Shown here piece by piece: positions 7,252 through 47,427 of a stretch of 54,799 nt of DNA. Position numbers and translations under genes: made by a program. The notes under the pieces were generated by a model, which searched no databases, was not told where the DNA came from, and worked only from the letters and a program-made list of their open reading frames with translations. This DNA comes from an uncultured Gemmatimonadaceae bacterium (lineage in GTDB: Bacteria; Gemmatimonadota; Gemmatimonadetes; Longimicrobiales; RSA9): assembly GCA_964410055.1 (NCBI GenBank), contig CAYPGK010000009.1, forward strand, positions 5,549 through 60,347, given 5' to 3'. The number at the start of each line of letters is the position of its first letter. Within the stretch, counting starts at the first letter, position 1.

Positions 7252-7562
7252 AGCGCGGGCAGCCCGGGGTGATCCGCGTCGCGCTCGGCTTCGCCGCGCT
7301 GCTCGCGTCGCTGAGCCTGGTGATCTGGCGTCAGAGCCGCGCGCTCGAGGTGCTGCGCGCCCTCGATGGAGTGCGCCGTGAGCGGGCGGTCGTTGAGGCG
7401 GAGCGAGCGGCGCTGCTGCAGCGGATCCGTCGTCTGGAGAGCCGGAGCCGGGTGGTGGCGGAGGCGGGCGAAAGGTTGGGGATGCACGTACCAACGGGTG
7501 CGGAGATCGTGATCCTGCCGATGGGCGCGGCATCGGGTGCGGAGCCGGAGGTGGTGCGGTGA
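7248..7562 (+). CDS. ftsL: Cell division protein FtsL
   Basis: GTGA overlap with rsmH; single TM helix, coiled coil, A.ERLGM..P; lies between rsmH and ftsI. Confidence 0.8.
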   Translation: MKRGQPGVIRVALGFAALLASLSLVIWRQSRALEVLRALDGVRRERAVVEAERAALLQRIRRLESRSRVVAEAGERLGMHVPTGAEIVILPMGAASGAEPEVVR

Positions 7563-12503: not shown

Positions 12504-12506
12504 CGT

Positions 12507-13613: not shown

Positions 13614-15001
13614 TGATGGCGCGGCGTGCCGGCGCGGCCGGCGGGACGGTTGCGGTGCTCGGGCTCGCGCGGAGCGGGTGCGCGGCGGCCGAGCTCGCGC
13701 TGCACGCCGGCTACCGGGTCTACGCATCGGATGCCGGGGACTCGCCGGCGCTGCGCGAGGCGGCCGAGGCGGTGCGCCGGGCGGGCGGGGAGGCGGAGGT
13801 GGGGGGGCACTCGGTCGAGAAGATCGCCGCGAGCGAGCTGGTCGTGGTGAGCCCCGGGATCCCGCCGACGGCGCCGATCTTCGCCGAGCCGGGCGTGGCC
13901 GGGGTGCCGCGGGTCTCGGAGCTGGAGTTCGCGTTCCGGTTCCTCGATGCGCCGGTCGCGGCGGTGACGGGGACGAACGGCAAGACGACGACGGCGGCGC
14001 TCGCGTCGAACCTGCTCCGGACGGCGGGGCTGGACGCGCCGGCCGCGGGGAACATCGGGCTCGCGCTCTCGGAGGTCGCGCGCCGCGAGCCCGCGCCGGA
14101 CTGGGTCGTCGTGGAGGCGAGCTCCTTCCAGCTCGCGGACATCGACACCTTCGTGCCGAGGATCGGCGTGGTGACGAACCTGGCGCCGGACCACCTGGAC
14201 CGGTACCCGACGGTCGAGGCCTACTACGCCGACAAGACGCGCCTCTTCGAGAACGCGACCGAGTCGAGCCGCTGGGTGCTGAACGGCGAGGAGCCGGAGG
14301 TGCTGGCGCTCGCGGGCGACGCGCCCGGGCGGCGCTACTTGTTCCGCGTACGGAGCGCGCCGTGCTCGCAGGAGCTGGGCGGCCACGTGGCGGCGGATGG
14401 CGTGCTCACGCTCCGGACCGAATCGGGTGAGGTGCCGCTGGTGCACGTTTCGGAGCTCCGGATCCTGGGCGAGCACAACCGGGCGAACGCGCTCGCGGCG
14501 TCGCTGGTTGCGGTGCTGGCGGGCGCGGATGTCGAAGCGGTTCGGGAGGGGCTGCGCACCTTCCGGGCGCTCGAGCACCGGCTCGAGCCGATCGTCGAGA
14601 GGGACGGCGTGCTCTGGATCAACGATTCGAAGGCGACGAACGTCGAGTCGACGCGCGTGGCGCTGCGCAGCGTGACGCGCCCGACGGTGCTGCTGCTGGG
14701 CGGCCGTCACAAAGGCGAGCCGTACACGTCGCTCGTGCCCGAGCTGAAGGCGCGCGCGCGGGCGGTGGTCGCGTACGGCGAGGCGGCGCCGATCGTCGAG
14801 GCGGAGCTGTCGCCCGCGGTGCGGGTCGAGCGGGTCGACGGCCCGTTCGAGGAGGTGGTCGCGCGCGCCGCGTCGCTCGCGCTGCCGGGCGACGTGATCC
14901 TGCTTTCTCCGGCGTGCGCGAGCTACGATATGTTCCGGGACTACGAAGAGCGGGGCCGGCGCTTCGCCGCGCTGGCGCGGGGGGAGGAGGAGCGTGCGTA
15001 A
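13613..15001 (+). CDS. murD: UDP-MurNAc-L-Ala:D-Glu ligase MurD
   Basis: TGATG overlap; GLARSG, VVSPGIP, TGTNGKTT, SSFQL, NDSKATN and LSPACASYD motifs. Confidence 0.95.
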   Translation: MMARRAGAAGGTVAVLGLARSGCAAAELALHAGYRVYASDAGDSPALREAAEAVRRAGGEAEVGGHSVEKIAASELVVVSPGIPPTAPIFAEPGVAGVPRVSELEFAFRFLDAPVAAVTGTNGKTTTAALASNLLRTAGLDAPAAGNIGLALSEVARREPAPDWVVVEASSFQLADIDTFVPRIGVVTNLAPDHLDRYPTVEAYYADKTRLFENATESSRWVLNGEEPEVLALAGDAPGRRYLFRVRSAPCSQELGGHVAADGVLTLRTESGEVPLVHVSELRILGEHNRANALAASLVAVLAGADVEAVREGLRTFRALEHRLEPIVERDGVLWINDSKATNVESTRVALRSVTRPTVLLLGGRHKGEPYTSLVPELKARARAVVAYGEAAPIVEAELSPAVRVERVDGPFEEVVARAASLALPGDVILLSPACASYDMFRDYEERGRRFAALARGEEERA

Positions 15002-16199
15002 CGGCGTCGGCGTCGCGACGGCGACGTGGGAAGACCTGTCCGCGACGGAGCGGACTCGCCTCGACACGGGGTGGGAGGGAGCAGTGCTGCTGCTGCTCTC
15101 TCTGGTCCTCCTCTCGTTCGGGCTGGTCATGCTCTACAGCGCGAGCGCGGCGAACGCACAGATGAGCGGGCTCGAGGACTACCACTTCGTGGTGCGGCAG
15201 GCGATGGGCGGCGCCATGGGACTGGTCGGTCTTGCGGTCTTCGCGCGCATCGACTACCGGCACCTGCGTCGCCTCGCCTGGCCGCTCCTCGGCGCGGTGA
15301 CGCTGCTCCTGCTGGTGGTCGTGATGCCGGGGACACAGGCGATCGCGCCGGAGATCAACGGCGCGCGGCGCTGGCTGGTCTTGGGCGGTCTGACGCTCCA
15401 GCCGTCGGAGTTCGCGAAGCTCGCGATCGTGATCTGGACGGCGGCGCTCGCGGTGAAGAAGCAGGACAAGCTGCCCAGCCTGAGCCGCGGGCTCCTGCCG
15501 TTCCTGATCGTCTGGGGCGCGGTCGTGGGGCTGATCGTCCTGGAGCCGAGCCTTTCGGCCGGGATGATCGTGGTGCTGCTCGCATCGCTGGTGGTCTTCG
15601 CCGCGGGTGCGCGGATCGGGCACTTCCTGGTGCTCGGCGTGGTCGGGCTCCCGCTTCTCTGGAGCCAGGTCGAGACGGCGGCGTACCGGATGCGGCGCGT
15701 GGTCGCGTTCCTGGACCCGTCGCACGATCCGGCGGGCGTGAGCTACCAGATCCGGCAGTCGCTGATCGCGGTGGGGAGCGGCGGCGTGTTCGGGCGCGGC
15801 TTCGGGCGCGGCGAGCAGAAGTTCGGCTTCCTCCCCGAGCCGCACAACGACTTCCTCTTCGCGATGATCGGCGAGGAGTGGGGGTTCATTGGCGTGTTCG
15901 CGGTGGTCGCGCTCTTCGTCGCGTTCGGGATGGTCGGCTACAGGGTGGCGCGGCAGGCGCCGGACCTCTTCGGCTCGCTCCTCGCGATCGGCGCGACCAA
16001 CGTGATCGTCGTGCAGGCGTTCCTGCACATGGCCGTCAACCTGGCGCTCGTTCCGACGACCGGCGTGACGCTGCCCTTCTTCTCCTACGGGCGGTCGAGC
16101 CTGCTGGTCTGCCTGGCGGCGGTCGGCGTGCTGATCTCGATCGCACGGGCCGGCAGCCGCGGCGACGCCGGGGTGGAGCCGGTTGGAGGGGCGGTGTGA
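14994..16199 (+). CDS. ftsW: Peptidoglycan polymerase FtsW
   Basis: GARRW, QPSEFAK, LPEPHNDF and LPFFSYG motifs; multi-TM. Confidence 0.95.
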   Translation: MRNGVGVATATWEDLSATERTRLDTGWEGAVLLLLSLVLLSFGLVMLYSASAANAQMSGLEDYHFVVRQAMGGAMGLVGLAVFARIDYRHLRRLAWPLLGAVTLLLLVVVMPGTQAIAPEINGARRWLVLGGLTLQPSEFAKLAIVIWTAALAVKKQDKLPSLSRGLLPFLIVWGAVVGLIVLEPSLSAGMIVVLLASLVVFAAGARIGHFLVLGVVGLPLLWSQVETAAYRMRRVVAFLDPSHDPAGVSYQIRQSLIAVGSGGVFGRGFGRGEQKFGFLPEPHNDFLFAMIGEEWGFIGVFAVVALFVAFGMVGYRVARQAPDLFGSLLAIGATNVIVVQAFLHMAVNLALVPTTGVTLPFFSYGRSSLLVCLAAVGVLISIARAGSRGDAGVEPVGGAV

Positions 16200-17392
16200 G
16201 CATGGGCGGGCGTGGCGGCGCGGCGGGCGCGCCCGCCGCGGGCCCGGGTGAGCGGCCCGGCGCAGGCACCGTCTGCGTCCTCTTCGCCGGCGGCGGCACC
16301 GGCGGGCACCTCTACCCGGCGCTCGCGCTGGCCGCGGCGATGAAGGAGGTGCACCCGGAGGTGGAGGCGCACTTCGTCGGTGCGCGGCGTGGCGTCGAGG
16401 CGCGGGTGTTCCCGGCGCAGGGCGTGCCGCACACGCTGCTGCCCTTCGAGCCGATCCGGCGCGACCGGGTCTGGCGCAACTGGCGGCTCGTGCCGGCGAT
16501 GGTGAAAAGCGCGGTCGGGCTCATGCGGCTGTTCCGAACTTTCCGGCCGCGGCTGGTGGTCGGGACCGGCGGATACGCGAGCGGACCGGCGTGCGCCTGG
16601 GCGCTGCTGCGAGGCGTGCCGGTCGCGGTGCAGGAGCAGAACTCGTATCCGGGGCTGGTCACGCGGTGGCTCTCCCGTTGGGCGCGGCAGGTCCACCTCG
16701 GCTTCCCCGAGGCGGCGCGGCACCTGCGGCCGGGCCCCGATACGGAGGTGTTCACACTCGGTAACCCGATCCGGCCGCCGGATCCGGGGCTCGACCCGGC
16801 GGCGTGCCGGCGGGAGTTCGGCCTCGCGCCGGAGGGGGTGGTCGGGCTGGTGGTGGGGGGGAGCCAGGGCGCGCGCGCGGTGAACGAGGCGCTGTGCCGC
16901 ACGCTCGAGGCGGTCGCTGCGGGCCGTCTCGAGGCGCCGCCCGAGGGCATGCAGCTCCTCTGGGCTACGGGCCCGGCGCACGTGGATTCGGTGCGGCGAC
17001 GGCTGGAGCCGCTCGGCGTCGAAGGCTGGGTGCGCGTCGTCGGCTACATCGAGGAGATGCCGAAAGCGCTCGCGGCGGCGGACTTCGCGCTCTCGCGGGC
17101 AGGCGCGATGGCGACGGCGGAGCTGATGGCGTGGGGGATCCCGGCGATCCTGGTCCCGCTGCCGACGGCGGCTGCGGACCATCAGACGCACAACGCGCGG
17201 GCGCTGGCGGAGGCGGGCGCGGCGGTGTGCGTGGCGGAGTCGGAGCTGTCGCCGGAGCGACTGTGGGGCGAGCTGCGCCGGATCGCCGGCGATGGGGCGC
17301 TGCGCGAGTCGATGGCGGAAAAGGCGCGCGGGCGTGCGCGGCCGGACGCGGCGCGCGAGATCGCGGAACGGATGCTTTCCCTGGTGGCGTGA
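16196..17392 (+). CDS. murG: Lipid II GlcNAc transferase MurG (start 16196 or 16202)
   Basis: GGGTGGHLYP, GTGGY, EQN, GGSQGA and HQTHNA motifs. Confidence 0.94.
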   Translation: MSMGGRGGAAGAPAAGPGERPGAGTVCVLFAGGGTGGHLYPALALAAAMKEVHPEVEAHFVGARRGVEARVFPAQGVPHTLLPFEPIRRDRVWRNWRLVPAMVKSAVGLMRLFRTFRPRLVVGTGGYASGPACAWALLRGVPVAVQEQNSYPGLVTRWLSRWARQVHLGFPEAARHLRPGPDTEVFTLGNPIRPPDPGLDPAACRREFGLAPEGVVGLVVGGSQGARAVNEALCRTLEAVAAGRLEAPPEGMQLLWATGPAHVDSVRRRLEPLGVEGWVRVVGYIEEMPKALAAADFALSRAGAMATAELMAWGIPAILVPLPTAAADHQTHNARALAEAGAAVCVAESELSPERLWGELRRIAGDGALRESMAEKARGRARPDAAREIAERMLSLVA

Positions 17393-18837
17393 TGGAAGAG
17401 CGTGGCACTGGCATGAACGCGGGGGCCCGCGACGAGGCGGGGCTGGACCTGCGCGCACTGGCGCGAACGGGGCCGGTCCACTTCGTCGGGATCTCGGGCG
17501 CCGGCGTCTCCGCGCTGGCGGAGCTGGTGCTGCGCAGCGGCGGCCGGGCGACGGGTTGCGACCTGCGCTCCGGCCCGGCAGTGGACGCGCTCCGCGAGCT
17601 GGGCGCCGAGATCGTGGAGGGGCACGACCCGTCGCACGTGGCGGACGCGGTCGCCGTGGTGACGACGGCGGCGGTCCCGGCCGACCATCCGGAGCTCGTC
17701 GAGGCGCGCGCCCGCGGGATCCCCGTACTGAAGCGGGCGGAGGCGCTGGGCGCGCTGGTCAACCGTGGGACGGTGGTCGCGGTCGCGGGGACGCACGGCA
17801 AGACGACGACGACGGCGATGACGACGGCGGTCCTGGCGGAGGCCGGGCTCGACCCGACGGGCTTCGTGGGCGGGCGGGTGCCGGGGTGGGGGAGCGGGCT
17901 GCGCGCCGGCTCGGACCGCCTCTTCGTGGTCGAGGCCGACGAGTACGACCGCTCGTTCCTCACTCTGCAGCCGGACGTGGCGATCGTGACGACGATCGAG
18001 GCCGATCACCTGGACGTCTACGGCACGCTCGAGGCGGTCGAGGCGGCGTTCCGCGAGTTCGTTGCGCCGGTGCCGGACGATGGCCTGATCGCGGCGTGCG
18101 TCGACGATGCGGGCGCGAAGCGGCTCCTGGAGGAGGCGGCGGGGGAGCGAGGGCTGGGCTACGGACTCTCTGCCGACGCCGCGCTTCGGGCGGTCGATGT
18201 CGAGGCGCGGGGCCGGGGGAGCCGGTTCATGCTGGTGGAGCGCGGCGAGCCGCTAGGCGAGGTAGTGTTGGGGGTGCCCGGGGCGCACAACGTGAGGAAC
18301 GCGCTGGCCGCGATCGCGGCGGCGCGGCACCTGGGCGCGGACCTGGCCGCGATCCGGCACGCGCTCGCTGAGTTCCGCGGCGTCGGCCGGCGGTTCGAGG
18401 CGCTGGGCGAGGCGGGCGGCGTGCTCTTCGTGGACGACTACGCGCACCACCCGACGGAGATCGAGGCGACGCTGGCCGCGGCGCGGAGCGCGTACCCGGA
18501 GCGGCGGCTCGTCGCCGTCTTCCAGCCACACCTGTACTCGAGGACGCGGGACTTCGCGGGGGCGTTCGGCCGGGCGCTGGCGGGTGCGGACGTGGTGTGG
18601 GTCGCAGAGGTCTATCCCGCGCGCGAGGCGCCGATCCCGGGCGTGACGGGCGCGCTGGTGGCGGACGCGGCGCGGGCGGCGGGTGCGGAGGACGTGCACT
18701 ACCACCCGGATGTGGGCACGCTGCGCGAGGCGCTCGCGGCGTCGCTGCGGTCGGGCGACCTGTGCCTGACGCTCGGCGCGGGCGACATCGACGAGACCGG
18801 CCGCGTGGTGCGGGAACGTCTGGAAGAGGCCGCGTGA
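17392..18837 (+). CDS. murC: UDP-MurNAc:L-Ala ligase MurC
   Basis: HFVGISGAGVS, AGTHGKTTT, EADEYD, DDYAHHPTE and FQPHLYSRT motifs. Confidence 0.95.
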   Translation: MEERGTGMNAGARDEAGLDLRALARTGPVHFVGISGAGVSALAELVLRSGGRATGCDLRSGPAVDALRELGAEIVEGHDPSHVADAVAVVTTAAVPADHPELVEARARGIPVLKRAEALGALVNRGTVVAVAGTHGKTTTTAMTTAVLAEAGLDPTGFVGGRVPGWGSGLRAGSDRLFVVEADEYDRSFLTLQPDVAIVTTIEADHLDVYGTLEAVEAAFREFVAPVPDDGLIAACVDDAGAKRLLEEAAGERGLGYGLSADAALRAVDVEARGRGSRFMLVERGEPLGEVVLGVPGAHNVRNALAAIAAARHLGADLAAIRHALAEFRGVGRRFEALGEAGGVLFVDDYAHHPTEIEATLAAARSAYPERRLVAVFQPHLYSRTRDFAGAFGRALAGADVVWVAEVYPAREAPIPGVTGALVADAARAAGAEDVHYHPDVGTLREALAASLRSGDLCLTLGAGDIDETGRVVRERLEEAA

Positions 18838-19583
18838 TCCGTGCGATCCCGCGCTGGGGCTGGGCGCTCCTTGCCCTTGCGGTCTTCGTCACGCTGGCGG
18901 CACAGGCGCCGCTGCTGCTCCGGCGCATGGAGGCGTTCCGGGTGCAGCGGGTCGAGGTGCTCGGGACGCGGTACCTGGCGCCGCACGACGCGCTGGCCGC
19001 GAGTGGGATCGCGGACACGTCGAGCGTCTTCGACGACCCGGCGCCGTGGCGCGAGGCGCTGATGCGCCACCCGCTGGTCGCGAGCGCGACGATCGAGCGC
19101 AAGCTCCCCGGGACGCTGATCGTGACGATCGTCGAGGTCGAGCCGGTCGCGCTGGTGCGCACGCCCGAGCTACGAGCGGTGGACGGCGCGGGGCGGATGC
19201 TCCCGATCGACCCGGCGGGTGCGGTGCTGGACGTGCCGATCGTGGACGCGCCCGTGCGGGTGGCCGAGGATGGCGTCGTCGAAAGCGACACGGTTGCCGC
19301 GCTGATCGACGTTGCCGCTCGCCTCGGGCGAGTCGCGCCGGCGCTCGCCGCGCGCGTATCCGAGGTCGGGGCGGGGGAGGGCGGCACGGTCCGGCTCCTC
19401 CTGCGCGAGCCGACGAACGCGGAGGTGCTGCTCCCGGCGGCGCTGGATGGCGAGCGCCTCGAGCAGCTCCGCCTGACGATACAGGATCTCGAGCGCCGCC
19501 AGGAGATGCGGGGCGTGCGCAGGATCGACGTACGATTCCGAGACCAGGTCGTGGTCTCGCTGAACCCTAGCGCAAGTGGCTGA
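18834..19583 (+). CDS. ftsQ: Cell division protein FtsQ/DivIB
   Basis: GTGA overlap; TM helix, POTRA-like segment (FRVQRVEVLG...RKLPGTL), C-terminal IDVRFRDQVVV. Confidence 0.88.
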   Translation: MIRAIPRWGWALLALAVFVTLAAQAPLLLRRMEAFRVQRVEVLGTRYLAPHDALAASGIADTSSVFDDPAPWREALMRHPLVASATIERKLPGTLIVTIVEVEPVALVRTPELRAVDGAGRMLPIDPAGAVLDVPIVDAPVRVAEDGVVESDTVAALIDVAARLGRVAPALAARVSEVGAGEGGTVRLLLREPTNAEVLLPAALDGERLEQLRLTIQDLERRQEMRGVRRIDVRFRDQVVVSLNPSASG

Positions 19584-20814
19584 TATGCGAGCCAACCTCT
19601 TTGCCGGGCTGGACATCGGGACGACGAAGACGTGTGCGGTCATCGTCGAGGTCGCGGGCGAGCCGCCGCGGCATCCCAAGATCAAGATACTGGGCGTCGG
19701 ACAGGCCCGGACGGGCGGGATGCGCCGCGAGGTGGTCACCGACATCGAGGAGACGACGGAGTCGGTGCGCGCGGCGATGAAGGAAGCCGAGCTCATGGCC
19801 GGCGTCTCGCTCGACCGCGTCTTCGTGGGCGTGGCGGGCGAGCACGTGCACGCGAAGACGTCGACGGGCGTCGTCGCCGTGGGCCGCGAGGAGATCGATG
19901 CGGGCGACGTGCGCCGTGTGCACGAGGTCGCGCGCGCGGTCGTCGTCCCGGCCGACCGCGAAGTTCTGCACGTGCTGCCGCAGGAGTACCTGGTCGACCA
20001 CCGGGCCGGGATCCGCGATCCGGTCGGGATGGTCGGCACGCGCCTCGAGGCGGAGGTCTACATCATCACGAGCTCGGTCACGGCCACGCAGAACCTGCGC
20101 AAGGCGGTCGACCGCGCTGGCTACAAGATCGAGGCGCTGGTCCACGAGCCGCTCGCGACGTCGCTCTCGGTGCTCGTCGAGGACGAGAAGGACGTCGGCG
20201 TCGCGCTGGTCGACCTGGGCGGCGCCACGACCGAGCTGGCCGTCTTCCGGGACGGCAAGATGCGCCATCTGGCCACGATCCCGTGGGGCGGCGTGACGGT
20301 GACGAACGACCTGGCGAAGGGGCTTTCCATCACCTACGCCGAAGCCGAGCGGGCCAAGGAGAAGTTCGGCGTCGCCTCGGCTCAGCTCGTCGACCCGCGG
20401 GAGATGGTCGAGGTCCCGGGCCCGGGGCCGGGGAGCCAGCGGCAGGTCCCGCGCGAGCTGATCGCGCACATCATCGAGCAGCGCCTGGACGAGATCCTCG
20501 GGCTCGTCGCCCGGGAGATCGAGAGCGCGGGCGAGAAGGGGAACCTCGGCGCCGGCGTCGTGCTGACGGGCGGCGGCGCCTCGCTCGCGGGGACCTCGGA
20601 GGTCGCGCAGCACGTCTTCGGCATGCCGGTCCGGATCGGCACTCCCGGCGAGGAGCTGGTCGGGCTGGTCGACTCGGTACGCCGTCCGAAGTTCGCAACC
20701 GCCACGGGGCTCGCCATGTACGGCGCGCACCGCGGCATCGAGACAGGGATCAGCACCGGATTCGGTGAGGGCGCCATGAGCCGACTGGTCGCCTGGCTGA
20801 AGGAGTTCTTCTAG
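19576..20814 (+). CDS. ftsA: Cell division protein FtsA
   Basis: GLDIGTTK, VDLGGATT, VVLTGGG motifs; C-terminal amphipathic WLKEFF. Confidence 0.96.
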   Translation: MADMRANLFAGLDIGTTKTCAVIVEVAGEPPRHPKIKILGVGQARTGGMRREVVTDIEETTESVRAAMKEAELMAGVSLDRVFVGVAGEHVHAKTSTGVVAVGREEIDAGDVRRVHEVARAVVVPADREVLHVLPQEYLVDHRAGIRDPVGMVGTRLEAEVYIITSSVTATQNLRKAVDRAGYKIEALVHEPLATSLSVLVEDEKDVGVALVDLGGATTELAVFRDGKMRHLATIPWGGVTVTNDLAKGLSITYAEAERAKEKFGVASAQLVDPREMVEVPGPGPGSQRQVPRELIAHIIEQRLDEILGLVAREIESAGEKGNLGAGVVLTGGGASLAGTSEVAQHVFGMPVRIGTPGEELVGLVDSVRRPKFATATGLAMYGAHRGIETGISTGFGEGAMSRLVAWLKEFF

Positions 20815-20886
20815 TCCGTTCCGTTTTCATCCAACCGCCACGGGGGATCACCGGTCGGTCTCCCGGGCCACCCAAAGGAGGGTGAC

Positions 20887-22068
20887 ATGATGATCTTCGA
20901 ATTCGAGGATGCAGCCGTCCAGAATGCGCGCATGAAAGTCGTCGGTGTGGGCGGTGGCGGCGGCAACGCGGTCAACCGCATGATCGACGAGGAGCTGGAG
21001 GGCGTCGAGTTCATCAGCGTCAACACGGATGCACAGGCGCTGAAGAGCTCGCGTTCGCAGGTCAAGATCCAGATCGGCAAGAAGCTGACGCGCGGGCTGG
21101 GCGCGGGCGCGCGCCCGGAGATCGGCCGGCAGGCGATCGAGGAGAACAAGGACGAGGTCGCGCGGGCGATCGAGGGCTCGGACCTGGTCTTCGTCACCGC
21201 CGGTATGGGCGGTGGCACGGGGACGGGCGCGGCGCCGGTCATCGCCGAGATGGCGCGCGAGATGGGCGCGCTCAGCATCGGGATCGTGACGAAGCCGTTC
21301 CTCTTCGAGGGGAAGAAGCGGATGCGTCAGGCCGAGCAGGGGCTGGCCGAGCTGAAGCGAGCGGCCGACACGGTCATCGTGGTTCCGAACGAGCGGCTGC
21401 TCTCGGTGGTCGGCAAGGGCGTCAGCTTCCGCGACGCGCTGAAGAAGGCCGACGAAGTGCTGCTGCACGCCACGCAGGGGATCAGCGACCTGATCAACGT
21501 GACGGGCGAGGTCAACGTGGACTTCGCGGACGTGCGGACGGTCATGCAGAACCGCGGTCCGGCGTTGATGGGCACGGGCTTCGGCCGTGGCGAGAACCGG
21601 GCGGTCGAGGCGGCTCAGGAGGCGATTTCGAGCCCACTGCTGGACAACCTGTCGATCTCGGGGGCGGCCGGCGTGCTGATCAACATCACGGGCGGCATGG
21701 ACCTCACCATTGACGAAGTCACGACGATCGCGTCTATCATCCAGGAGGCGGCGGGAGACGACGCGGAGATCATCTTCGGCGCGGTGCACGACCCGACGCT
21801 GGAGGGCGAGGTCCGGGTCACGGCGATCGCGACGGGGCTGGAGGCGGAAGCCGAGCCGCCGGCGCGCGACAACGTGATCCGTGGCAACTTCGCGCCGCGT
21901 CCGATGGTCGCTCCGGCCGCGGCCGCTGCTGCCGCAGCCCCTGCGGCGCCGCGGACGCCGGTCATCGCCGAGGCGATGCCGTTCCCGCGTCAGCCGGAGC
22001 GCGCGATCATGCGCCAGCAGCTTGCCGACCTGGACATCCCGACGTTCATCCGGCGACAGATGGATTAG
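20887..22068 (+). CDS. ftsZ: Cell division protein FtsZ
   Basis: [24 protein letters not shown] motifs; C-terminal [13 protein letters not shown]. Confidence 0.98.
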
Positions 22069-22104
22069 GCGGAGCCGAGGGGCCTTCGCCGGAGAGGGGG
22101 ATCG

Positions 22105-23415
22105 ATGTCGAACCCGTTGCGAGTGACGGTGCTCGTGCTGCTCGCCACGCTCACGTGGGGGATCAGCGCGTTCTGGGAGCCCGGGAGCCGAGTGCCCGGG
22201 AGCGAGGCCGCGCCCGTGCTGGGCACGCTCTACGCCGCCCCGGTCGACCGCGTCGAGAAGCATGTGCTCGCCGCGGGCGAGACGCTCGACCGGCTGCTCA
22301 GCCGGGCGGAGATCGTGGGCGCGGAGCTGCACGAGCTGGTCCGTGCGCTCCGCGAGTACAAGAACCCGAGGCACCTGCGGCCGGGCGTGGAGGTCACGGT
22401 CCGCAAGTGGGCCGATGACGGCCGTGCGCGGGCGGTCGAGCTGCGGATCAACGCGGACAGCACGGTCCACTTCGATCGGTCGGAGACCGGCTGGGCCGGC
22501 AGCGTCCGGATCACGCCGACCACGATCGACACGACGTACGCGTCTGGCGTGATCGGCGTGGGCGGCTCGGTCTACCAGGCGATCATGCGCGACGACGCCC
22601 TGGAGCTGCCGCCGGCGGAGCGCGAAGCACTCGTCGCCGAGCTGGCGGAGATCTACGCCTACCGGCTCGACTTCTCGCACGACATCCGGCCCGGTGACCG
22701 GTACCGGCTGGTGTACGAGCGGGAGGCGCGGCCGGACGGGACGGCGCGCAGACGTCGCATTCTGGTGGCCGAGGTGGTGAACCAGGGGCGCACGTACCCG
22801 GCGATCTACTTCAACGCGCACGGCACGCGGGGCGAGTACTACGACAGCGAGGGCCGCTCGCTCCAGACGATGTTCCGGCGCTACCCCGTCGACTACGTGC
22901 GGATCACGTCGTCCTTCTCGTGGCGGCGCTATCATCCGGTGCTGGGGCGCTACCGCGCGCATCTCGGCACGGACTTCGGCGCGGCGCCCGGCACGCCGGT
23001 CCGGGCGACGGCCGACGGCACCGTCTCCTTCGCCGGCCGCGACGGCGGCTACGGCAACCTGATCAAGATCCGTCACGCGCTCGGCTACGAGACGCGCTAC
23101 GCGCACCTGCGCGGCTTCGCGCGTGGGATCAGGGCGGGGACGAAGGTGGTGCAGGGGCAGATCATCGGCTACGTCGGCGCGACCGGGCTGGCGACCGGTC
23201 CGCACCTGCACTACGAACTGCGGAAGAACGGCCAGGCGCTGAACGCGAGCCGGGTCCAGCTCCCCGGCAAGCCGGGCGTGCCCGACGCGAAGATGGCCGA
23301 CTTCCGCGCGCTGGTCGAAGAGCGCGTCGCGCTCCTCGAAACGAACCTCCCGGTGGGCCCGCACCTTGCGGGGGCGGAGGGCGAATCGGAACGGACAATG
23401 GGCGGAGACCGCTGA
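22105..23415 (+). CDS. M23 (LytM) peptidoglycan DD-endopeptidase, MepM-like
   Basis: N-terminal hydrophobic anchor, LysM/OapA-like region, HLGTD (HxxxD), GGYGN, YAHL and GPHLHYE (HxH). Confidence 0.92.
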   Translation: MSNPLRVTVLVLLATLTWGISAFWEPGSRVPGSEAAPVLGTLYAAPVDRVEKHVLAAGETLDRLLSRAEIVGAELHELVRALREYKNPRHLRPGVEVTVRKWADDGRARAVELRINADSTVHFDRSETGWAGSVRITPTTIDTTYASGVIGVGGSVYQAIMRDDALELPPAEREALVAELAEIYAYRLDFSHDIRPGDRYRLVYEREARPDGTARRRRILVAEVVNQGRTYPAIYFNAHGTRGEYYDSEGRSLQTMFRRYPVDYVRITSSFSWRRYHPVLGRYRAHLGTDFGAAPGTPVRATADGTVSFAGRDGGYGNLIKIRHALGYETRYAHLRGFARGIRAGTKVVQGQIIGYVGATGLATGPHLHYELRKNGQALNASRVQLPGKPGVPDAKMADFRALVEERVALLETNLPVGPHLAGAEGESERTMGGDR

Positions 23416-34806: not shown

Positions 34807-35289
34807 CTAGGCGTCCGCGCGGCGAGACAGGTCGACCGGGTGGCGCAGACCGAACTCGGTGTCGGTGAGGATGACCTGCTTCGCGCGCCCGGTGCGCATG
34901 TCGATCGCGACCGGACCCTGGAGGTTGAGGGTGCAGGGCCGATCGGGGGTGCGAGGGAGGGTGACGATCGCGAGGACCGCGAGGTCCGAGGCGGCCGTGG
35001 TCCCGAGCTCGGCGACCTCGGCGTCGTGCAGCTCGACGACGTAGTCGCGGACGAAGACGAAGGGATCGGCAAGGAGGAAGGCGAGCGCCTCGTCCTCGTT
35101 CGACTGGAGCCAGTAGAGCCCTTCGTGGTCGGTTGCGCGGAGGGTGAACTGCCGGTGCTCCGGGAAGCCGAAGAGCCCATTGCGGAAGTGGACGAGCCGC
35201 TTGAATGGCCGGGGCTCGGACTGGGCGCCGACAGTCGGCGCATCGATAGGGTCGGTGGCCTTCAACGCAGTCGCCGTAGCGTTCATCAT
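34807..35289 (-). CDS. fliW: Flagellar assembly factor FliW
   Basis: GLFGF, WLQS, FLLADPF and TLNLQGP..AKQVIL motifs; ATGA overlap with flgL stop. Confidence 0.92.
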   Translation of the reverse strand: MMNATATALKATDPIDAPTVGAQSEPRPFKRLVHFRNGLFGFPEHRQFTLRATDHEGLYWLQSNEDEALAFLLADPFVFVRDYVVELHDAEVAELGTTAASDLAVLAIVTLPRTPDRPCTLNLQGPVAIDMRTGRAKQVILTDTEFGLRHPVDLSRRADA

Positions 35290-36176
35290 CTCAGGTAATC
35301 CGTGAGCGAAGTCTGAAGAATCCGAGCGTTCGCGGCCAGGGCGGCCTGATAAGCGGTCTGCTGATGGATCAGCCGGGTCAGCGCTTCCTCCAGCTCGACG
35401 TCGGAAAGGTCGGAGCGGAAGGTCTTGAGCTGGACGTCCCACGCCTCGAGGTTGGCCTCGGCCATGTCGAGCGCGTTCTGGCGCGCGCCGACCTCGGCAA
35501 TGAGGTCCTGGACCGCGCCGAAGGCGCGATCGACCGAGGCGATCGAGGCGGAGACGGCGTCTTGATCGTTGGCGCCGAGCGCATCGGCGAGCTCGCGGAG
35601 CGAAGCGAAGACCTCGCTGTCGATGAAGACCGTTCCGCCGTCGTGCTGGGTGGCGATGAGATGGCCGCTCGCGATCTCGACCTGCCGGCCGCCGGCGTCG
35701 CGGGGCGGGAAGTCGGGATCGAACGCGCCGTCGGCATCGAACGGCCGGCGGTCGTCGAACGCACCGCCGAAGAGATAGCTGCCGTTGACGCGGGTATTGC
35801 CGAGCTGGATCGCTTCGGCGAGCAACTGTTCGACCTCGGCCTTCGCCGCGGCGCGGGTGTCTGCGTTCGCCGTGCCGGTCGCATTCGCGATGGCGAGCTC
35901 CCTGGCGCGGGTGAGGAGGTCGGTCAGGCTGCCGAGCACGCTCTCCTCGGCGGAGAGCCGGGTCCGCGCCGTGCCGATGTTGCGCCGGTACTGTTCGATG
36001 GCGCGGAGCTGACTGTCGGTGCGCACGACGGTGCCGGCGGCGACCGGGTCGTCGGACGGCCGGTGGATGCGCGAGCCGGAGACCACCTGCTTTTGCGCTT
36101 CGTGGATCGAGCGCAGCGTGGCCTGATAGTTGGTCAGCGTCTGGCGTTGCAGCAGACTGTTGGTGATCCTCGACAT
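35286..36176 (-). CDS. flgL: Hook-associated protein 3 FlgL
   Basis: MSRIT, SGSRIHRPSDDPVAA, NGSYLFGG, GARQN and C-terminal SLTDYLR. Confidence 0.92.
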   Translation of the reverse strand: MSRITNSLLQRQTLTNYQATLRSIHEAQKQVVSGSRIHRPSDDPVAAGTVVRTDSQLRAIEQYRRNIGTARTRLSAEESVLGSLTDLLTRARELAIANATGTANADTRAAAKAEVEQLLAEAIQLGNTRVNGSYLFGGAFDDRRPFDADGAFDPDFPPRDAGGRQVEIASGHLIATQHDGGTVFIDSEVFASLRELADALGANDQDAVSASIASVDRAFGAVQDLIAEVGARQNALDMAEANLEAWDVQLKTFRSDLSDVELEEALTRLIHQQTAYQAALAANARILQTSLTDYLR

Positions 36177-36264: not shown

Positions 36265-36360
36265 ATACGGCCCCGGAATGCCCGCGCCGGGCGGGAGCGC
36301 GGAGCCGGCCGTGGATGGGCCACCGTCGTTGTGGTTGGCATTTCTTTTCCCCGGAGAACG

Positions 36361-37764
36361 ATGGCAACGATCCTTTGCGTCGACGATGAACCCCCCGTCG
36401 TCCAGGTATTGAAGACGCTTCTGCAGCGTTCAGGTCACCAGGCGGTGGGCGTGCACAACGTGGAGGCGGCGTTCAACGTGCTTTCGCGCGGCGGTGTCGA
36501 CCTGATCATTTCCGATTACCGAATGCCGGACGCGACGGGGCTCGAGTTCCTCGCGCGGCTCGCGCAGGAGGGGTATGACACGCCGCTGGTCATGCTGACC
36601 GGGTACGCGAGCATCGAGCACGCGGTCGCCTCGATCAAGGCGGGCGCCGTCGACTACCTCACGAAGCCCGTGCGCGCCGAGCAGCTCGAGCTGGTGGTCG
36701 ACCAGGCGCTGGAGTTCAGTCGGCTGCGCCGTGAGAACGCCGCGCTGCGCGACGAGGTCAACCAGCTCCGGACCGAGCGCGAGCTGATCGGCGAGAGTCC
36801 CGTGTTCAAAAGGACGCTCGAGACGATCGCGATGGTCGCGCGCACGCGGGCTACGGTACTCCTGCAGGGCGAGTCCGGGACCGGGAAGGAGCTCCTCGCA
36901 CGCGCGATCCACAACGAGAGCGAGCGGCGCGACGGACCGTTCATCTCCGTCAACTGCGCCGCCATGCCGGAGCAGCTCGTCGAGAGCATCCTCTTCGGCC
37001 ACGAGAAGGGCGCCTTCACGGGCGCGATCCGGCAGGTCAAGGGTGCCTTCGAGCGGGCGCACCGGGGCACGCTCCTGCTCGACGAGGTCTCGGAGATGCG
37101 CCTCGACCTCCAGGCCAAGCTGCTCCGCGTGCTGCAGGAGCAGGAGTTCGAGCGCGTGGGCGGCACGACGCCCGTGCGCGTCGACGTCCGCATCGTCGCC
37201 ACGACCAACCGCGACCTCGCGGCCGAGGTCCAGGCCGGAAACTTCCGCGAGGACCTCTTCTACCGCCTCAGCGTCGTGCCGGTCTCCGTCCCGCCGCTCC
37301 GCGAGCGCGCAGACGACATCCCGCTCCTCGCCCACCGCTTCGCACAGCGCGTCGCCCGCGAGATCGGCAAGGAGTTCCACGGACTCTCGCCGGAGACCAT
37401 CGAGATGCTCCGCGGCTATTCCTGGCCCGGCAACGTGCGCGAGCTCGCGCACACCATCGAGCGCGCCGTGATCCTGGCGCCCGAGCCGGTCCTCAAACCG
37501 TCGGCGTTCGACAGGGAACGCTTCGGACTGACCCCTGTCGGGCCCTCGCCGAACGGCACGGCGCAGCACCCCACCGGCGCGGCCGCCCAGGGCCACGCGG
37601 ACGGGCTCGTCGTCCTCGACACCCTCAACCTCGCCGAGGCCGAGAAGGTCCTCATCGAGCGCGCGCTCGAAGCGACCGACCAGAACCGCACGCGCGCAGC
37701 CGAGCTGCTCGGCATCAGCGTGCGCACCCTTCGCAACAAGCTCAACGTCAAGTCGACCGATTGA
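36361..37764 (+). CDS. Sigma54-dependent response regulator (REC-AAA+-Fis HTH), FlrC/FleR/FlgR-like
   Basis: VDDE and SDYRMP receiver; GESGTGKE, GAFTGA, LLDEV, FREDLFYRL, WPGNVREL; C-terminal HTH; directly upstream of flgB. Confidence 0.93.
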   Translation: MATILCVDDEPPVVQVLKTLLQRSGHQAVGVHNVEAAFNVLSRGGVDLIISDYRMPDATGLEFLARLAQEGYDTPLVMLTGYASIEHAVASIKAGAVDYLTKPVRAEQLELVVDQALEFSRLRRENAALRDEVNQLRTERELIGESPVFKRTLETIAMVARTRATVLLQGESGTGKELLARAIHNESERRDGPFISVNCAAMPEQLVESILFGHEKGAFTGAIRQVKGAFERAHRGTLLLDEVSEMRLDLQAKLLRVLQEQEFERVGGTTPVRVDVRIVATTNRDLAAEVQAGNFREDLFYRLSVVPVSVPPLRERADDIPLLAHRFAQRVAREIGKEFHGLSPETIEMLRGYSWPGNVRELAHTIERAVILAPEPVLKPSAFDRERFGLTPVGPSPNGTAQHPTGAAAQGHADGLVVLDTLNLAEAEKVLIERALEATDQNRTRAAELLGISVRTLRNKLNVKSTD

Positions 37765-44567: not shown

Positions 44568-45113
44568 GTGGTGACGAGGATCCTGGTTTTCGTGTCCGTC
44601 GGCTTCACGCTGGGCGTGACCCTCGGCTCCGCCGTGAGGGTCATGACGACGCCGGACCCGATCGTGGTGGAGGAGCCGGACGAAGCGGGCGCAACTTCGG
44701 GGCCGGAGGCACAGCCGTCCGGGGATACGACGACTTCGACGCCGTCCGGCGGCGCGCCGCCGGCGCAGATGTCGGTCGGCGACGGAGCGTCGCACACAGG
44801 CGGGCTGGCGGACGGGGCGCCCGCCGAGCCGAGGCGGCCGGCGCCCGTGCTGACCCAGGTTGCACCGGCCACCGCCACCCGACCCGGCGGGGAAGACGCG
44901 TCCGAACCAGATGGCTCGGCACGGCTCGGCAAGATCTTCGCCGCCATGGATGCCCGGGACGCCGCCCGCGTCCTGGAGATGCTCGATGACCACGAGGTCC
45001 GCTCGATCCTGTCCCACATGACCGACAGGCACGCGGCAGCGATCCTCGGACACTTCGATCCCGCGCGCGCCGCGACGCTGAGCCGCGTGGTGCTGGGAGC
45101 CCCGGCGCGATGA
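44568..45113 (+). CDS. MotE/YlxF/FlbB-like flagellar protein (MgtE N-like helical domain)
   Basis: N-terminal TM, low-complexity linker, RLGKIFAAMDARDAARVL...AAAILGHFDPARAA; lies between fliJ and fliK. Confidence 0.8.
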   Translation: MVTRILVFVSVGFTLGVTLGSAVRVMTTPDPIVVEEPDEAGATSGPEAQPSGDTTTSTPSGGAPPAQMSVGDGASHTGGLADGAPAEPRRPAPVLTQVAPATATRPGGEDASEPDGSARLGKIFAAMDARDAARVLEMLDDHEVRSILSHMTDRHAAAILGHFDPARAATLSRVVLGAPAR

Positions 45114-46765
45114 TGGAGGTCGCGATGTTCCTCGGAGGCGATTCGGCCGTGAGCCGCACCGAGTCCGTCGGCTCGCCCAGCGGGCGCGCCCGGCGCGGAC
45201 AGGGGGCGGACGCGGCTGAGCACGACGCCGCGACCTTCGCCGCCGCGCTCATGTCGGCGCAGATGCGCACGGAGCCCGCGCCGGACGTGCTCCGGATCGA
45301 CGCCTCGCTCGAGCGCCTGGACCCGCAGTTCCGTGCGCGGCTCGAGCGGGTCATGGAGCGGATGCGGGACGAGTACGGCCACGAGGTGCGGCTCGTGGAA
45401 GGGTTCCGTGACGGCGCGCGGCAGGACTACCTCTACGCCCAGGGGCGCACCCGGCCGGGGCCGATCGTGACGTGGACGCGCGATTCCGCTCACGAACGCG
45501 GCCTGGCCGCCGACCTCCTCGTCGACGGCCGCTACGACAACCCGGAAGGGTACGCGCGGCTCGCGCAGGTCGCCCGCGAGGAGGGGCTCCGCACCCTCGG
45601 ACCGATGGACGCGGGACACGTCGAGCTGGCCGACAAGCCGACCTCGCCACAGGCAGCGACTGCGGCACGGACTGCGACCGACGCCGCGACGGCCCGCGCT
45701 GCGCTCCAGCCGATGCCTCCGCCCACGGCCCAGCCGACGGGCACGATCGCCCGGCCGGCGGCGCCGGCGGAGGTCGCGGCCGTCGCACCGGTCGCGGTCC
45801 CGGCGGCGGCATCCGTGGCGCGGGTCGCCACGGTGGCCCGGACCGCTCCGGCGTCTTTCGCCGGACTGCACTCGAACCAGGCGCAGGGCACACGCTCCGT
45901 CGCCGGCCAGGGCGCTGCGGTGGGCATCCCGGTCGCACCGAATGCCGCGGGCGAATCGGTGGGGAGCGCCATGCCGGGCCTGAACGACGCGGCGGAGCGG
46001 GTTGACGTCGCCTCGAATGCCGACCGCTCCGGCCGGCCGGGCGATATTCCGACGGCCTCATTGGCGGTCGAGGCCGCGACAGTCGCACGGGCGTCCGCGC
46101 CCCGGCGCGGCGCATCCGACGACGCGGCCGACTCCGGCACTCGAGACGCGCCGGACGCACTCGGCTTCGATCCGGCCACTTCCCGCACGGCCGACGCCCC
46201 GGCCGGCGACGTAGCGAGTGGCCCGTCGAGCACGGCCACGGCCTCCGGCGTCGCACAGGGCGCCGCGAGCACGGCCGCAGCCGGCGCGGGCGCGATCGAG
46301 CGCGCGGAGCAGATCCTGGAGCTCCAGGAAGCCGCAGCGGCGGCGCCGCGTTCACGCGTCGTCGTGCGCGTCGAGGATGGGGACGGCGGGGTCGGGCGCG
46401 TGCGGGTCGATCTGCGCGGCGCATCGGTCGATGCCGAGATCGCGGTTCCGGACCGGGAGCTCGCCGCCCGTCTCGATTCGCAGATGGATGCGCTGGACCG
46501 CGCGCTCCGGCGGGAGGGGCTGATGCCGGAAGCGCTGCGCGCCCACGCGGCGCCGGCGGCGGAGCACGGCGATGTCGCACGATTCTCCGCGCCCGGCGCT
46601 GCGATCGCGCAGGAGGCGACGCCCGGCGCCGCAGCGGACGCCGCGACCGACCGCGACCACCGCCGCGGCCATGATGACCCGACCCGCGATGCGCCCCGGC
46701 GCGACGGCGAGGAGCGACGGCATTCACCGAGAGAGGACCGCCACGAGAGGGGGCGCCCATGGTGA
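45110..46765 (+). CDS. fliK: FliK-like hook-length control protein with N-terminal M15 peptidase domain
   Basis: Residues ~62-173: EGFR..RQ..LYAQGRT.PGPIVT, SAHERGLAAD, DAGHVE; Ala/Pro/Thr-rich linker; FliK_C-like segment at 46349-46522; directly upstream of flgD. Confidence 0.75.
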   Translation: MMEVAMFLGGDSAVSRTESVGSPSGRARRGQGADAAEHDAATFAAALMSAQMRTEPAPDVLRIDASLERLDPQFRARLERVMERMRDEYGHEVRLVEGFRDGARQDYLYAQGRTRPGPIVTWTRDSAHERGLAADLLVDGRYDNPEGYARLAQVAREEGLRTLGPMDAGHVELADKPTSPQAATAARTATDAATARAALQPMPPPTAQPTGTIARPAAPAEVAAVAPVAVPAAASVARVATVARTAPASFAGLHSNQAQGTRSVAGQGAAVGIPVAPNAAGESVGSAMPGLNDAAERVDVASNADRSGRPGDIPTASLAVEAATVARASAPRRGASDDAADSGTRDAPDALGFDPATSRTADAPAGDVASGPSSTATASGVAQGAASTAAAGAGAIERAEQILELQEAAAAAPRSRVVVRVEDGDGGVGRVRVDLRGASVDAEIAVPDRELAARLDSQMDALDRALRREGLMPEALRAHAAPAAEHGDVARFSAPGAAIAQEATPGAAADAATDRDHRRGHDDPTRDAPRRDGEERRHSPREDRHERGRPW

Positions 46766-47427
46766 CCACACCCGTGACCACGTCCGCGCCGGCGGCGCAC
46801 GCCGCGCTCGCGACGGCGGGCGGCCAGCTCGGCAAGCAGGAGTTCCTGGAGCTCCTGGTCGCCCAGCTCCGCCATCAGGACCCGCTCAACCCCATGCAGC
46901 CGCAGGACATGGCGGCGCAGCTCGCGCAGTTCAGCAGCGTCGAGCAGCTCATCACGCTGAACGACCAGATGGCCGTCCAGATCGCCTTCGGTGAGGCGGT
47001 CGTCCACGGCCTCGCCAGCGGCACGGCGATCGGCGTCCTCGGCAGGAACGTCCTCGCCCGGTCCGACCGGGTCGAGATCGGCAAGGGCGGAAGCGACGCC
47101 ATCACGGTCGAGGTCGGCGGCGCGGGCGGCGCAGCGCGGCTCACGCTCCTCGATGCCGACGGCAAGGAGGTCGGCTCGCGCGACCTCGGCAGCCTCGCCG
47201 CGGGCCGCCACACCGTCGAGATCGGCAACGCGGCAAAGGGCCTGAAGGACGGCGTCTACAACGTCGTCGTCGAGGTCGTCGACGCCGACGGCGGCGACGT
47301 CGCCACCGTCACCTACGTGAACGTCCGCATCGATGGCGTGCGCAACACCGACCACGGCATCGTCCTGGCCGCCGGAGCGCTCGAGCTCGAAATGCGGGAC
47401 ATCGTCGAAGTCTTCCACAACCCGTAA
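46759..47427 (+). CDS. flgD: Hook capping protein FlgD
   Basis: LGKQEFLELLVAQLRHQDPLNPM and AQLAQFSSVEQL motifs. Confidence 0.95.
   Translation: MVTTPVTTSAPAAHAALATAGGQLGKQEFLELLVAQLRHQDPLNPMQPQDMAAQLAQFSSVEQLITLNDQMAVQIAFGEAVVHGLASGTAIGVLGRNVLARSDRVEIGKGGSDAITVEVGGAGGAARLTLLDADGKEVGSRDLGSLAAGRHTVEIGNAAKGLKDGVYNVVVEVVDADGGDVATVTYVNVRIDGVRNTDHGIVLAAGALELEMRDIVEVFHNP

Follow-up and report, generated by a model that had tools for sequence, protein, structure and literature searches.

A predicted M15 peptidase domain embedded in the flagellar hook-length ruler FliK of Gemmatimonadota

It is understood only in part how flagella and other trans-envelope machines make their way through the wall and leave the cell alive. 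Two solutions are known: the rod cap FlgJ carries a hydrolase itself, or it recruits a separate lytic transglycosylase. Here a further arrangement is described, in which a predicted M15-type peptidase domain forms part of the flagellar hook-length control protein FliK. The gene lies in a 54,799-nucleotide stretch of DNA, referred to as a whole as the window, from an uncultured Gemmatimonadaceae bacterium of the phylum Gemmatimonadota (GenBank assembly GCA_964410055.1, contig CAYPGK010000009.1, positions 5,549 to 60,347, forward strand). FliK, a secreted ruler, stops the hook from growing further and makes the flagellar type-III export gate switch; it belongs to the rod/hook class of substrates, passes through the export system unfolded with its N-terminus leading, and is released to the periplasm before the outer membrane has been crossed and to the medium afterwards. 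The hydrolase domain of FlgJ reaches the wall by this same export route.

A close parallel is the dual-domain FlgJ of Salmonella and of beta- and gamma-proteobacteria, in which a wall hydrolase is likewise fused to a rod/hook-class export substrate: as described in PMC8517470, a rod-binding cap is joined to a C-terminal glucosaminidase/muramidase that reaches the periplasm via the nascent rod and acts at the wall. At the present locus, by contrast, the carrier is the ruler rather than the rod cap and the enzyme a predicted Zn peptidase rather than a glycosidase, with the stem peptide rather than the glycan as its predicted target, while FlgJ itself has no enzyme domain. In that same account single-domain FlgJ proteins depend on a separate lytic enzyme; for SltF of Rhodobacter sphaeroides and BB0259 of Borrelia burgdorferi, as here, FlgJ serves only as a scaffold and another polypeptide supplies the wall-opening activity (PMC8517470). 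Those two enzymes belong to the SLT family and bind FlgJ, whereas the candidate here is an M15 peptidase within FliK, a protein without a Sec signal. SltF, for its part, is Sec-exported. Outside flagella, the account in PMC5061870 describes TagX of Acinetobacter, a Ply500-like L,D-endopeptidase without which the type VI secretion system does not get through the wall, so that an enzyme of the Ply500/CwlK-type L-Ala-D-Glu endopeptidase class, as proposed here, serves a trans-envelope machine at the producer's own wall. From this precedent it follows that a Ply500-like enzyme class can do the wall-passage job. TagX is a stand-alone, inner-membrane-anchored protein, whereas the protein described here, hereafter M15-FliK, has no membrane anchor, is a secreted flagellar ruler and is encoded in a flagellar operon rather than in a type VI secretion cluster.

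In the sequence of this protein the M15 domain comes after the presumed N-terminal export region and before the ruler linker, and a FliK_C domain follows the linker. The features on which the argument depends are these:

45110..46765, + strand: fliK gene, an ATG-start open reading frame (ORF) for a 551-residue hook-length control protein with an embedded M15 peptidase domain
45287..45634, + strand: predicted M15 (LAS-fold) peptidase domain of Ply500/LysB4/CwlK type, residues 60-175, from PDB sequence matches, an AlphaFold2 (AF2) model, Foldseek and phage matches
45407..45409, + strand: codon of R100, a conserved Arg upstream of the putative metal site, invariant in 36/36 relatives
45485..45514, + strand: S126-A-H128-E-R-G-L-A-A-D135, the SxHxxGxAxD motif with the first His and the Asp of the putative Zn site; S126, H128, G131, A133 and D135 invariant
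45608..45619, + strand: D167-A-G-H170, the DxxH motif with the putative general base and second Zn-binding His; D167, G169 and H170 invariant
46286..46564, + strand: FliK_C / T3S4 substrate-specificity-switch domain, residues 393-485, from PF02120, hhalign and an AF2 domain model

Because the Pfam matches of the single protein fall below the curated cut-offs, each domain was tested independently, and both proved to be well beyond chance despite these sub-threshold scores. For the peptidase, Pfam gives VanY over residues 70-137 at E 0.027 (14.7 bits, cut-off 25), and at E<=0.01 VanY is matched by 13 of 36 aligned relatives and M15_2 and M15_3 by 4/36 each. A phmmer search of PDB sequences returns LysB4 at 7.5e-6 and the Ply500 L-alanyl-D-glutamate peptidase at 9.2e-6, the motif of the ORF aligning to SNHNYGVAVD of both enzymes, and a profile of the 36 relatives matches Ply500 at 3.5e-12 and LysB4 at 1e-11. 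The AF2 model, built on the same relatives, has two confident blocks, residues ~60-175 and ~410-480 (predicted local distance difference test, pLDDT, 84-95), with the remainder disordered; across the first of them pLDDT is mostly >90. Foldseek with the full-length model ranks Ply500 (2vo9) first at 1.7e-6, with further matches to LysECD7 (8q2g, 3.3e-5), LysB4 (6akv, 1.4e-4) and the L-Ala-D-Glu endopeptidase ChiX (5opz, 4.2e-4), and the list also holds VanXYc, LdcB and VanX and then hedgehog N-domains, in keeping with the LAS / hedgehog-type fold of the model. As a 122-residue query on its own, the domain has matches in 52 phage records, most of them endolysins; the alignment with PlyP35 runs over residues 3-118 of the query at 30% identity and covers both motifs. 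Sequence and model together place residues ~60-175 as an M15 L-Ala-D-Glu-type peptidase domain of Ply500/LysB4/CwlK type. Fold and motifs are shared with Ply500, LysB4, PlyP35, Bacillus CwlK, Serratia ChiX and LysECD7; compared with the phage endolysins, CwlK and ChiX the domain is shorter (~115 residues) and comes with neither a cell-wall-binding domain nor a lysis cassette.

R100, R104, Q105, S126, H128, G131, A133, D135, D167, G169 and H170 are invariant in all 36 aligned relatives. The SxHxxGxAxD motif is kept in 244/246 retrieved family proteins, and in 244/244 it is followed within the next 60 residues by DxGH. Mean pairwise identity is highest in the M15 segment, at 0.60, compared with 0.40 in FliK_C and 0.17-0.25 in the N-terminus, linkers and tail. 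By this pattern of conservation the catalytic set is intact, strongly constrained and under purifying selection. By analogy with Ply500 and TagX, H128, D135 and H170 would be the Zn ligands and D167 the general base, and Zn-dependent cleavage with specificity for the L-Ala-D-Glu bond is what the nearest characterised relatives would predict. The Ply500 structure paper is reportedly a second basis for these residue roles. The other is the description of the metal-binding and general-base residues of Ply500 and TagX given in PMC5061870. The preliminary description of this DNA, made from the letters alone, had read M15-type motifs (SxHxxGxAxD, DxxH and an upstream Arg) into this ORF, and the PDB profile, Foldseek and the 36/36 invariance bear it out, down to the exact numbering of R100, H128, D135, D167, H170 and the other residues that it quoted; the inactive domain that it had held up as a ground for abandoning the idea is not what the intact catalytic set indicates in silico.

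At the C-terminus, PF02120 is matched at E<=0.01 by 32/36 relatives, the best at 1.9e-10. When the C-terminal domains of 18 M15 bearers were compared by hhalign with those of 20 plain FliKs of the same phylum, several of which pass the Pfam cut-off, the two groups matched with a probability of 99.2% and an E-value of 2.4e-19. Foldseek with the full-length model returned M15/LAS folds only and the C-terminal domain was therefore modelled separately: the AF2 model of residues 393-485 (pLDDT 81) gives the PscP switch domain 5cuk as its top match (probability 0.99, template modelling score 0.53) and FliK_C 2rrl as its third (probability 0.97), although none of its Foldseek matches reaches an E-value <=1e-3, which makes them supportive rather than decisive. 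A six-frame search of the genome (34,897 frames) with the plain-FliK_C profile finds the fliK ORF at 3.3e-14 and the next frame at 0.11; the two FliK_C profiles match this ORF only, genome-wide, with runner-up matches at E 0.65 and 0.11, and apart from it PF02120 finds one other place, which is noise (E 9.24). The M15 profile in the same six-frame search again finds the ORF alone, at 6.4e-59, with the next at 0.1. In this genome, 98.7% complete and a draft of 226 contigs, the ORF is thus the sole FliK, and no second M15 domain of the Ply500 type is found. A C-terminus other than FliK_C, or a canonical fliK elsewhere, would have spoken against the preliminary description; hhalign and the genome-wide profile search identify the one, and PF02120 and the plain-FliK_C profile find no trace of the other in the near-complete genome. 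With the rulers FliK, YscP and PscP the protein shares a C-terminal T3S4 domain, a long disordered ruler segment, a position before flgD and single copy, and it differs from them in its predicted enzymatic domain; we know of no ruler that has one.

The genome's single match to the rod-binding family PF10135 is on contig C65, where flgJ, placed after flgI and before a flgN-like gene and then flgK, encodes a protein of 96 residues consisting of the rod-binding domain only. The remark in the preliminary description that the window shows no flgJ is accurate, yet the gene is present on another contig in this rod-binding-only form. Rod-binding domain and hydrolase are on separate polypeptides, and because the former sits on the separate 96-residue protein M15-FliK is not a FlgJ; by analogy it may act like a FlgJ hydrolase domain. 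No glucosaminidase (PF01832) was found in the genome. SLT-domain frames number seven, none of them on C9 or C65, the flagellar contigs, and no additional hydrolase gene was seen in the syntenic 38-kb flagellar cluster of the closed genome G103. A complex prediction for the FlgJ alignment against the M15 domain scored 0.00, which has no bearing either way on binding.

The distribution of the fusion was surveyed in 201 Gemmatimonadota genomes, the source genome included, whose families carry the anonymous labels f1 to f12 (f4 is the sister family and f10 comes from the sister class). A rod-binding FlgJ is present in 55 of the 201, PF02120 is matched at E<=0.01 in 48 and the fliK ORF protein in 23. 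Forty FliK loci were retrieved and their frames scanned with M15 and FliK_C profiles; the weak matches in G012 and G200, ten of the 13 f10 FliKs and the FliKs of five f4 genomes lacking PF02120 were left out, and one locus with a weak Pfam match (G055) matched neither profile. M15 and FliK_C occur in one frame in 18 genomes, among them the source genome (15 from f5, two from f1 and one from f2), and in all 18 of these the FlgJ has <=29 residues after the rod-binding region. FlgJ tails are <=56 residues in all 42 genomes of f1, f2, f4 and f5, whereas in f10 they run to 177-188 residues in 12 of 13 genomes and to 99 in the other. The three f10 FliKs read are all plain, no match to the M15-domain profile was found in the three f10 genomes searched with it, and a search with the fliK ORF protein matched 0/13 f10 genomes. 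Within the sample, M15-FliK accordingly occurs only alongside a single-domain FlgJ (18/18) and never with a long-tailed one (0/13).

In the f10 genome G002 the 292-residue FlgJ (L019:934-1812, - strand) combines the rod-binding domain with SLT (Pfam SLT 4.3e-33) and not with a glucosaminidase; the f10 FlgJ loci include L146-L156, and the SLT tail was identified by Pfam in G002 alone. This protein also places a hydrolase module on the flagellar export pathway, there on FlgJ and here on FliK. Nambu et al. in 2006 reportedly described a FlgJ of some delta-proteobacteria in which the rod-binding domain is joined to an M23 peptidase. Such FlgJ fusions show that the hydrolase module attached to an exported protein is interchangeable and can be a peptidase.

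Beyond the survey, 7,999 candidates were scored among 90%-identity clusters, and 172 relatives stand at E<=1e-3. With a profile run against 1.84 billion 50%-identity representatives there are 5,967 matches at E<=1e-3, of which 1,737 reach <=1e-10 and 537 reach <=1e-30; the top 150 have lengths of 393-861 residues, and most of them align across the whole profile. In species-representative genomes 171/232 pattern matches were confirmed as loci, two of them complete chromosomes. The best 80 of the 171 loci are titled Gemmatimonadota, Gemmatimonadales, Gemmatimonadaceae, Gemmatimonas, Longimicrobiales, Longimicrobiaceae or 'uncultured bacterium', the nearest Atlas clusters are likewise Gemmatimonadota, and among the named holders of the best 120 of the 172 relatives the sole discordant label is 'Nannocystis sp.' on a protein from a metagenome-assembled genome. 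The species-genome scan used a family-specific peptide pattern and Atlas gave the nearest clusters only, and both are compatible with hydrolase-FliK fusions in other phyla, which may exist. In databases the best 120 of the 172 relatives are called 'M15 family metallopeptidase', 'hypothetical protein', CwlK, YcbK or D-Ala-D-Ala dipeptidase and only once FliK, and such names make fliK seem to be missing from the flagellar gene sets of Gemmatimonadota. That the source genome is a draft of many contigs is what speaks for an artefact of assembly or gene calling, or for a decaying pseudogene fusion, and the preliminary description had named such an artefact as grounds for giving up its idea. Against this, both domains share one open frame in 17 other genomes, three of which (G103, G067 and G136) are single-contig, and the confirmed loci and the representatives at the strictest threshold make hundreds of independent assemblies, while GC content at third codon positions in the ORF, 0.87, is like that of the adjacent genes. 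On the single-contig frames, the 171 loci and the 537 representatives this explanation was rejected, its probability being next to nil.

We incline, with only modest assurance, to the reading that M15-FliK carries a wall-opening enzyme exported by the flagellar secretion system, useful and dispensable. It starts from what is observed, that is, the architecture, the intact active site, purifying selection, the position of the gene, which has no second copy in the genome, a FlgJ of one domain only and the taxonomic distribution. Lacking a Sec signal, FliK would travel unfolded through the nascent rod with its N-terminus leading, as FliKs in general do; as long as the rod tip has not left the periplasm, the M15 domain would emerge there and fold with Zn at or near the tip. 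There it would cut stem peptides off the glycan strands and locally loosen the sacculus for the rod, in a cell whose FlgJ cannot open the wall because it is only a 96-residue rod-binding cap. Once the hook is complete, FliK_C would flip the export gate, and export of FliK, and with it delivery of the enzyme, would end. The contribution of the domain to flagellar assembly is probably helpful rather than essential. Where M15 is absent, housekeeping lytic transglycosylases are the likely substitute, by analogy with the bacteria with single-domain FlgJ considered in PMC8517470. A more daring version, tempting but rather doubtful, keeps the enzyme on a leash: the M15 domain would take up its fold at the rod tip with the ~300 residues that follow it yet to leave the channel, and a single polypeptide would target, dose and shut off a potentially lethal autolysin. 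Given N-terminus-first export, cutting would then be confined to the reach of the tip and to the transit of FliK.

Several points weigh against an exported wall-opening enzyme. The enzymatic activity, the bond specificity, the route of export, where and when the enzyme acts and what it adds to assembly are all things that we infer, and folding at the tip beneath the FlgJ cap is presumed. In Pfam the Flg_hook match of the ORF (PF02120, residues 430-474) stops at E 0.0065 and 16.7 bits, below its cut-off of 29.8, no curated M15 model in Pfam scores above its cut-off and the NCBIfam scan of the ORF matched no family; the Pfam comparison proposed at the outset thus recovered both domains, and neither above its curated threshold. 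The Zn ligands could be kept for stability of the fold alone, which would not explain the invariant R100 and D167. The seven SLT enzymes of the genome could serve FlgJ, as in other bacteria.

The relatives without the domain also belong here. All 17 f4 FliKs that were read are plain (in four of them, as in one f10 FliK, Flg_hook is the only credible Pfam domain), a genome search with the M15 profile found no M15-domain homologue in any of the 22 flagellated f4 genomes, and the FlgJ is single-domain in 22/22, with tails <=46 residues. The preliminary description had proposed setting the fusion against the presence of a catalytic FlgJ; 18 of 18 bearers fit that contrast, and 22 f4 genomes, which have neither, do not. 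None of the 23 SLT places in five f4 genomes is near the flagellar cluster, and the cluster of the f4 genome G127 (G127:C1:1985000-2024999, L142/L143) has no extra gene relative to the source genome. Within f5, G140 has a decayed M15 (L039:1187-1534, - strand; profile 2.6e-30) that is missing SxH, the Asp and the whole DxGH end, and is the sole M15-profile match among the f4, G089, G140 and f10 genomes searched; the FliK of G089 (L040:1820-3754, + strand) has no M15 domain, and the profile finds none elsewhere in that genome. In the FliK_C tree (39 rows, 94 columns), where the f4 clade has support of 96/96 and the f10 clade 100/100, G089 is sister to the M15 bearer G184 (100/98), which indicates secondary loss of the domain; G140 and G089 are two independent inactivations of the module within an M15-bearing family. 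For f4 the tree may fit either a loss or never having had the domain. The flagella of these close relatives are in any event built without it, and from the plain FliKs of f4, the loss in G089 and the decay in G140 together it follows that flagellar assembly can dispense with the M15 domain.

Stand-alone M15 genes were seen in three genomes without a FlgJ match, at G106:C2:130465-130962, G145:C182:67321-67605 and G033:C46:8692-8844, in frames of 314-373 residues with 35-55% local identity to the FliK-borne domain. From sequence they are possible relatives of the source of that domain.

The same observations bear on what else the domain might do. It could be a secreted lysin or muropeptide processor that rides on shed FliK and acts on the walls of neighbours or on free fragments, in competition or nutrition. 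The FliK of Salmonella is released into the medium, the nearest relatives with structures or annotation are phage endolysins and the domain is dispensable in some lineages, all of which would suit such a role. A weapon would however be expected to look different: a cell-wall-binding module, an adjacent immunity-like gene and polymorphism of the weapon type are all absent, M15 is the most conserved part of the protein and is confined to genomes whose FlgJ has no hydrolase domain, and the few molecules released per flagellum would be very dilute outside the cell, so that we consider this improbable. A role in the cell's own wall other than passage of the rod, such as trimming stem peptides to make space for the P ring or tuning the peptidoglycan bound by MotB, draws on the same evidence as an active periplasmic enzyme at the basal body, and it would sit well with the rod apparently passing without the domain in f4 and G089. 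The data give no specific pointer to P ring or stator, though, and we know of no other system in which an L,D-endopeptidase has such a role; on balance it, too, is unlikely.

Catalysis might, finally, be irrelevant, the domain being a small Zn-stabilised globule that folds once outside and forms the 'ball' in a ball-and-chain ruler, or else stops or anchors the protein at the hook cap. It does lie in the N-terminal half of the protein, which is where rulers of the FliK/YscP type contact the cap or tip, and its place along the protein varies widely, with the SxHxxGxAxD motif anywhere from residue 42 to 431 (median 263) in the retrieved relatives. A purely structural part leaves unexplained that R100 and the general base D167, for which no structural role is expected, are invariant together with the Zn ligands, and the plain FliKs of f4 and f10 work without such a globule. 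The decay in G140, moreover, has struck at exactly the catalytic motifs while the protein persists, which suggests that catalysis was what had been selected, and a structural role is accordingly given very little credence. The exported wall-opening enzyme thus stays the reading that we favour.

The remaining parts of the protein are as follows:

45110..45286, + strand: N-terminal region, residues 1-59, presumed type-III export and hook-cap-contact part, with F43 and L47
45755..45859, + strand: (V-A-x)n tripeptide repeat, residues 216-250, with conserved positions and low pLDDT
45860..46285, + strand: Ala/Pro/Ser-rich disordered linker (ruler segment), residues 251-392, with pLDDT <50 and identity 0.18
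46565..46762, + strand: Arg/Asp/His-rich disordered C-terminal tail, residues 486-551, with low pLDDT and an R-rich consensus

In the N-terminal region F43 and L47 are nearly invariant in the aligned relatives, and an AF2 helix of residues 32-53 spans this motif. Sequence reading and a hydropathy scan found no Sec-like signal at the N-terminus, that is, no positive n-region followed by a hydrophobic core, and a profile of the N-terminal 30 residues matched nothing, family members included. A loose F-x-x-L-L pattern occurs in 9/15 f4 frames, 11/17 frames of the M15 lineage (f5, f1) and 3/3 f10 frames; this sharing with some plain FliKs is too weak to prove a common export signal. The median number of Cys in the retrieved relatives is 0, and near-absence of Cys would be compatible with a substrate exported unfolded. 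There is no conserved transmembrane segment: the top 19-residue hydropathy window (1.73) is inside the Val/Ala repeat, which carries charged residues in relatives. This repeat, a run of 4-10 tripeptides (e.g. VARVAQVAxVA) just C-terminal of the M15 domain, has no Pfam match. In the aligned relatives A240 is invariant and A234, V236, A237, V239, A243 and A246 are nearly so, mean pairwise identity in the repeat is 0.45 compared with 0.17-0.18 in the adjacent linkers, and the period of three suggests an extended or polyproline II-like element, or a binding motif. The Ala/Pro-rich linker that had been seen before the FliK_C-like domain is there, disordered as the model has it. After FliK_C the tail is also Glu-rich, and the family consensus ends R-rich (RxRSRRE-like).

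The surroundings of the gene are those of a standard flagellar export/hook operon, and its two immediate neighbours are coupled to it:

44568..45113, + strand: ylxF/FlbB-like (MgtE_N-like) gene, upstream of and translationally coupled to fliK (PF03448, 1.1e-5)
46759..47427, + strand: flgD (hook cap), translationally coupled to fliK (PF03963, 2e-21; PF13860, 1e-7)

The ATG of fliK overlaps the stop codon of the ylxF-like gene as ATGA, and the final 7 nucleotides of the ORF overlap the start of flgD. Upstream the order is flgB, flgC, fliE, fliF, fliG, fliH, fliI, fliJ (PF02050, 2.7e-15) and the ylxF-like gene; downstream follow flgD, flgE, fliL, fliM, fliN, fliP/Q/R, flhB and flhA, the ORF thus lying directly upstream of flgD-flgE, as expected of FliK. 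Gene order is identical in the syntenic cluster of G103. The placing of the 551-residue ORF in the fliK slot between the ylxF-like gene and flgD, made beforehand, was exact to the coordinate.

Elsewhere in the window, reading from the starts of translations only, a cell-division/cell-wall (dcw-like) cluster occupies ~7559-23415, with an ftsA-like gene at 19576-20814 and an ftsZ-like gene at 20887-22068. Just upstream of flgB, read in the same way, are a sigma-54-type response regulator (36331-37764) and, on the minus strand, a flagellin-family/FlgL-like gene (35286-36176).

Each part is known by itself, the ruler FliK, the M15 endopeptidases and a wall hydrolase sent out by flagellar export; what is new is their combination on the ruler. 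No report of a FliK or other type-III ruler with an enzymatic domain was found in the literature outside most subscription journals and supplementary files, in line with the statement in the preliminary description that such a mechanism was not known to be described. An intact peptidoglycan peptidase in FliK would be a third solution to wall crossing and the first enzymatic domain reported on a type-III ruler, and the leash, if true, would be a new principle by which a secretion machine crosses the wall and the first catalytic function of a ruler. The finding raises the questions of whether a Zn enzyme can be delivered by flagellar export and then fold at the rod tip and whether a folded domain in the ruler alters the measurement of hook length. 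With FlgJ-SLT, M15-FliK and neither of them, a single phylum offers a natural three-way comparison, and in one branch of the Gemmatimonadota the ruler itself may help the growing flagellum to cross the wall.

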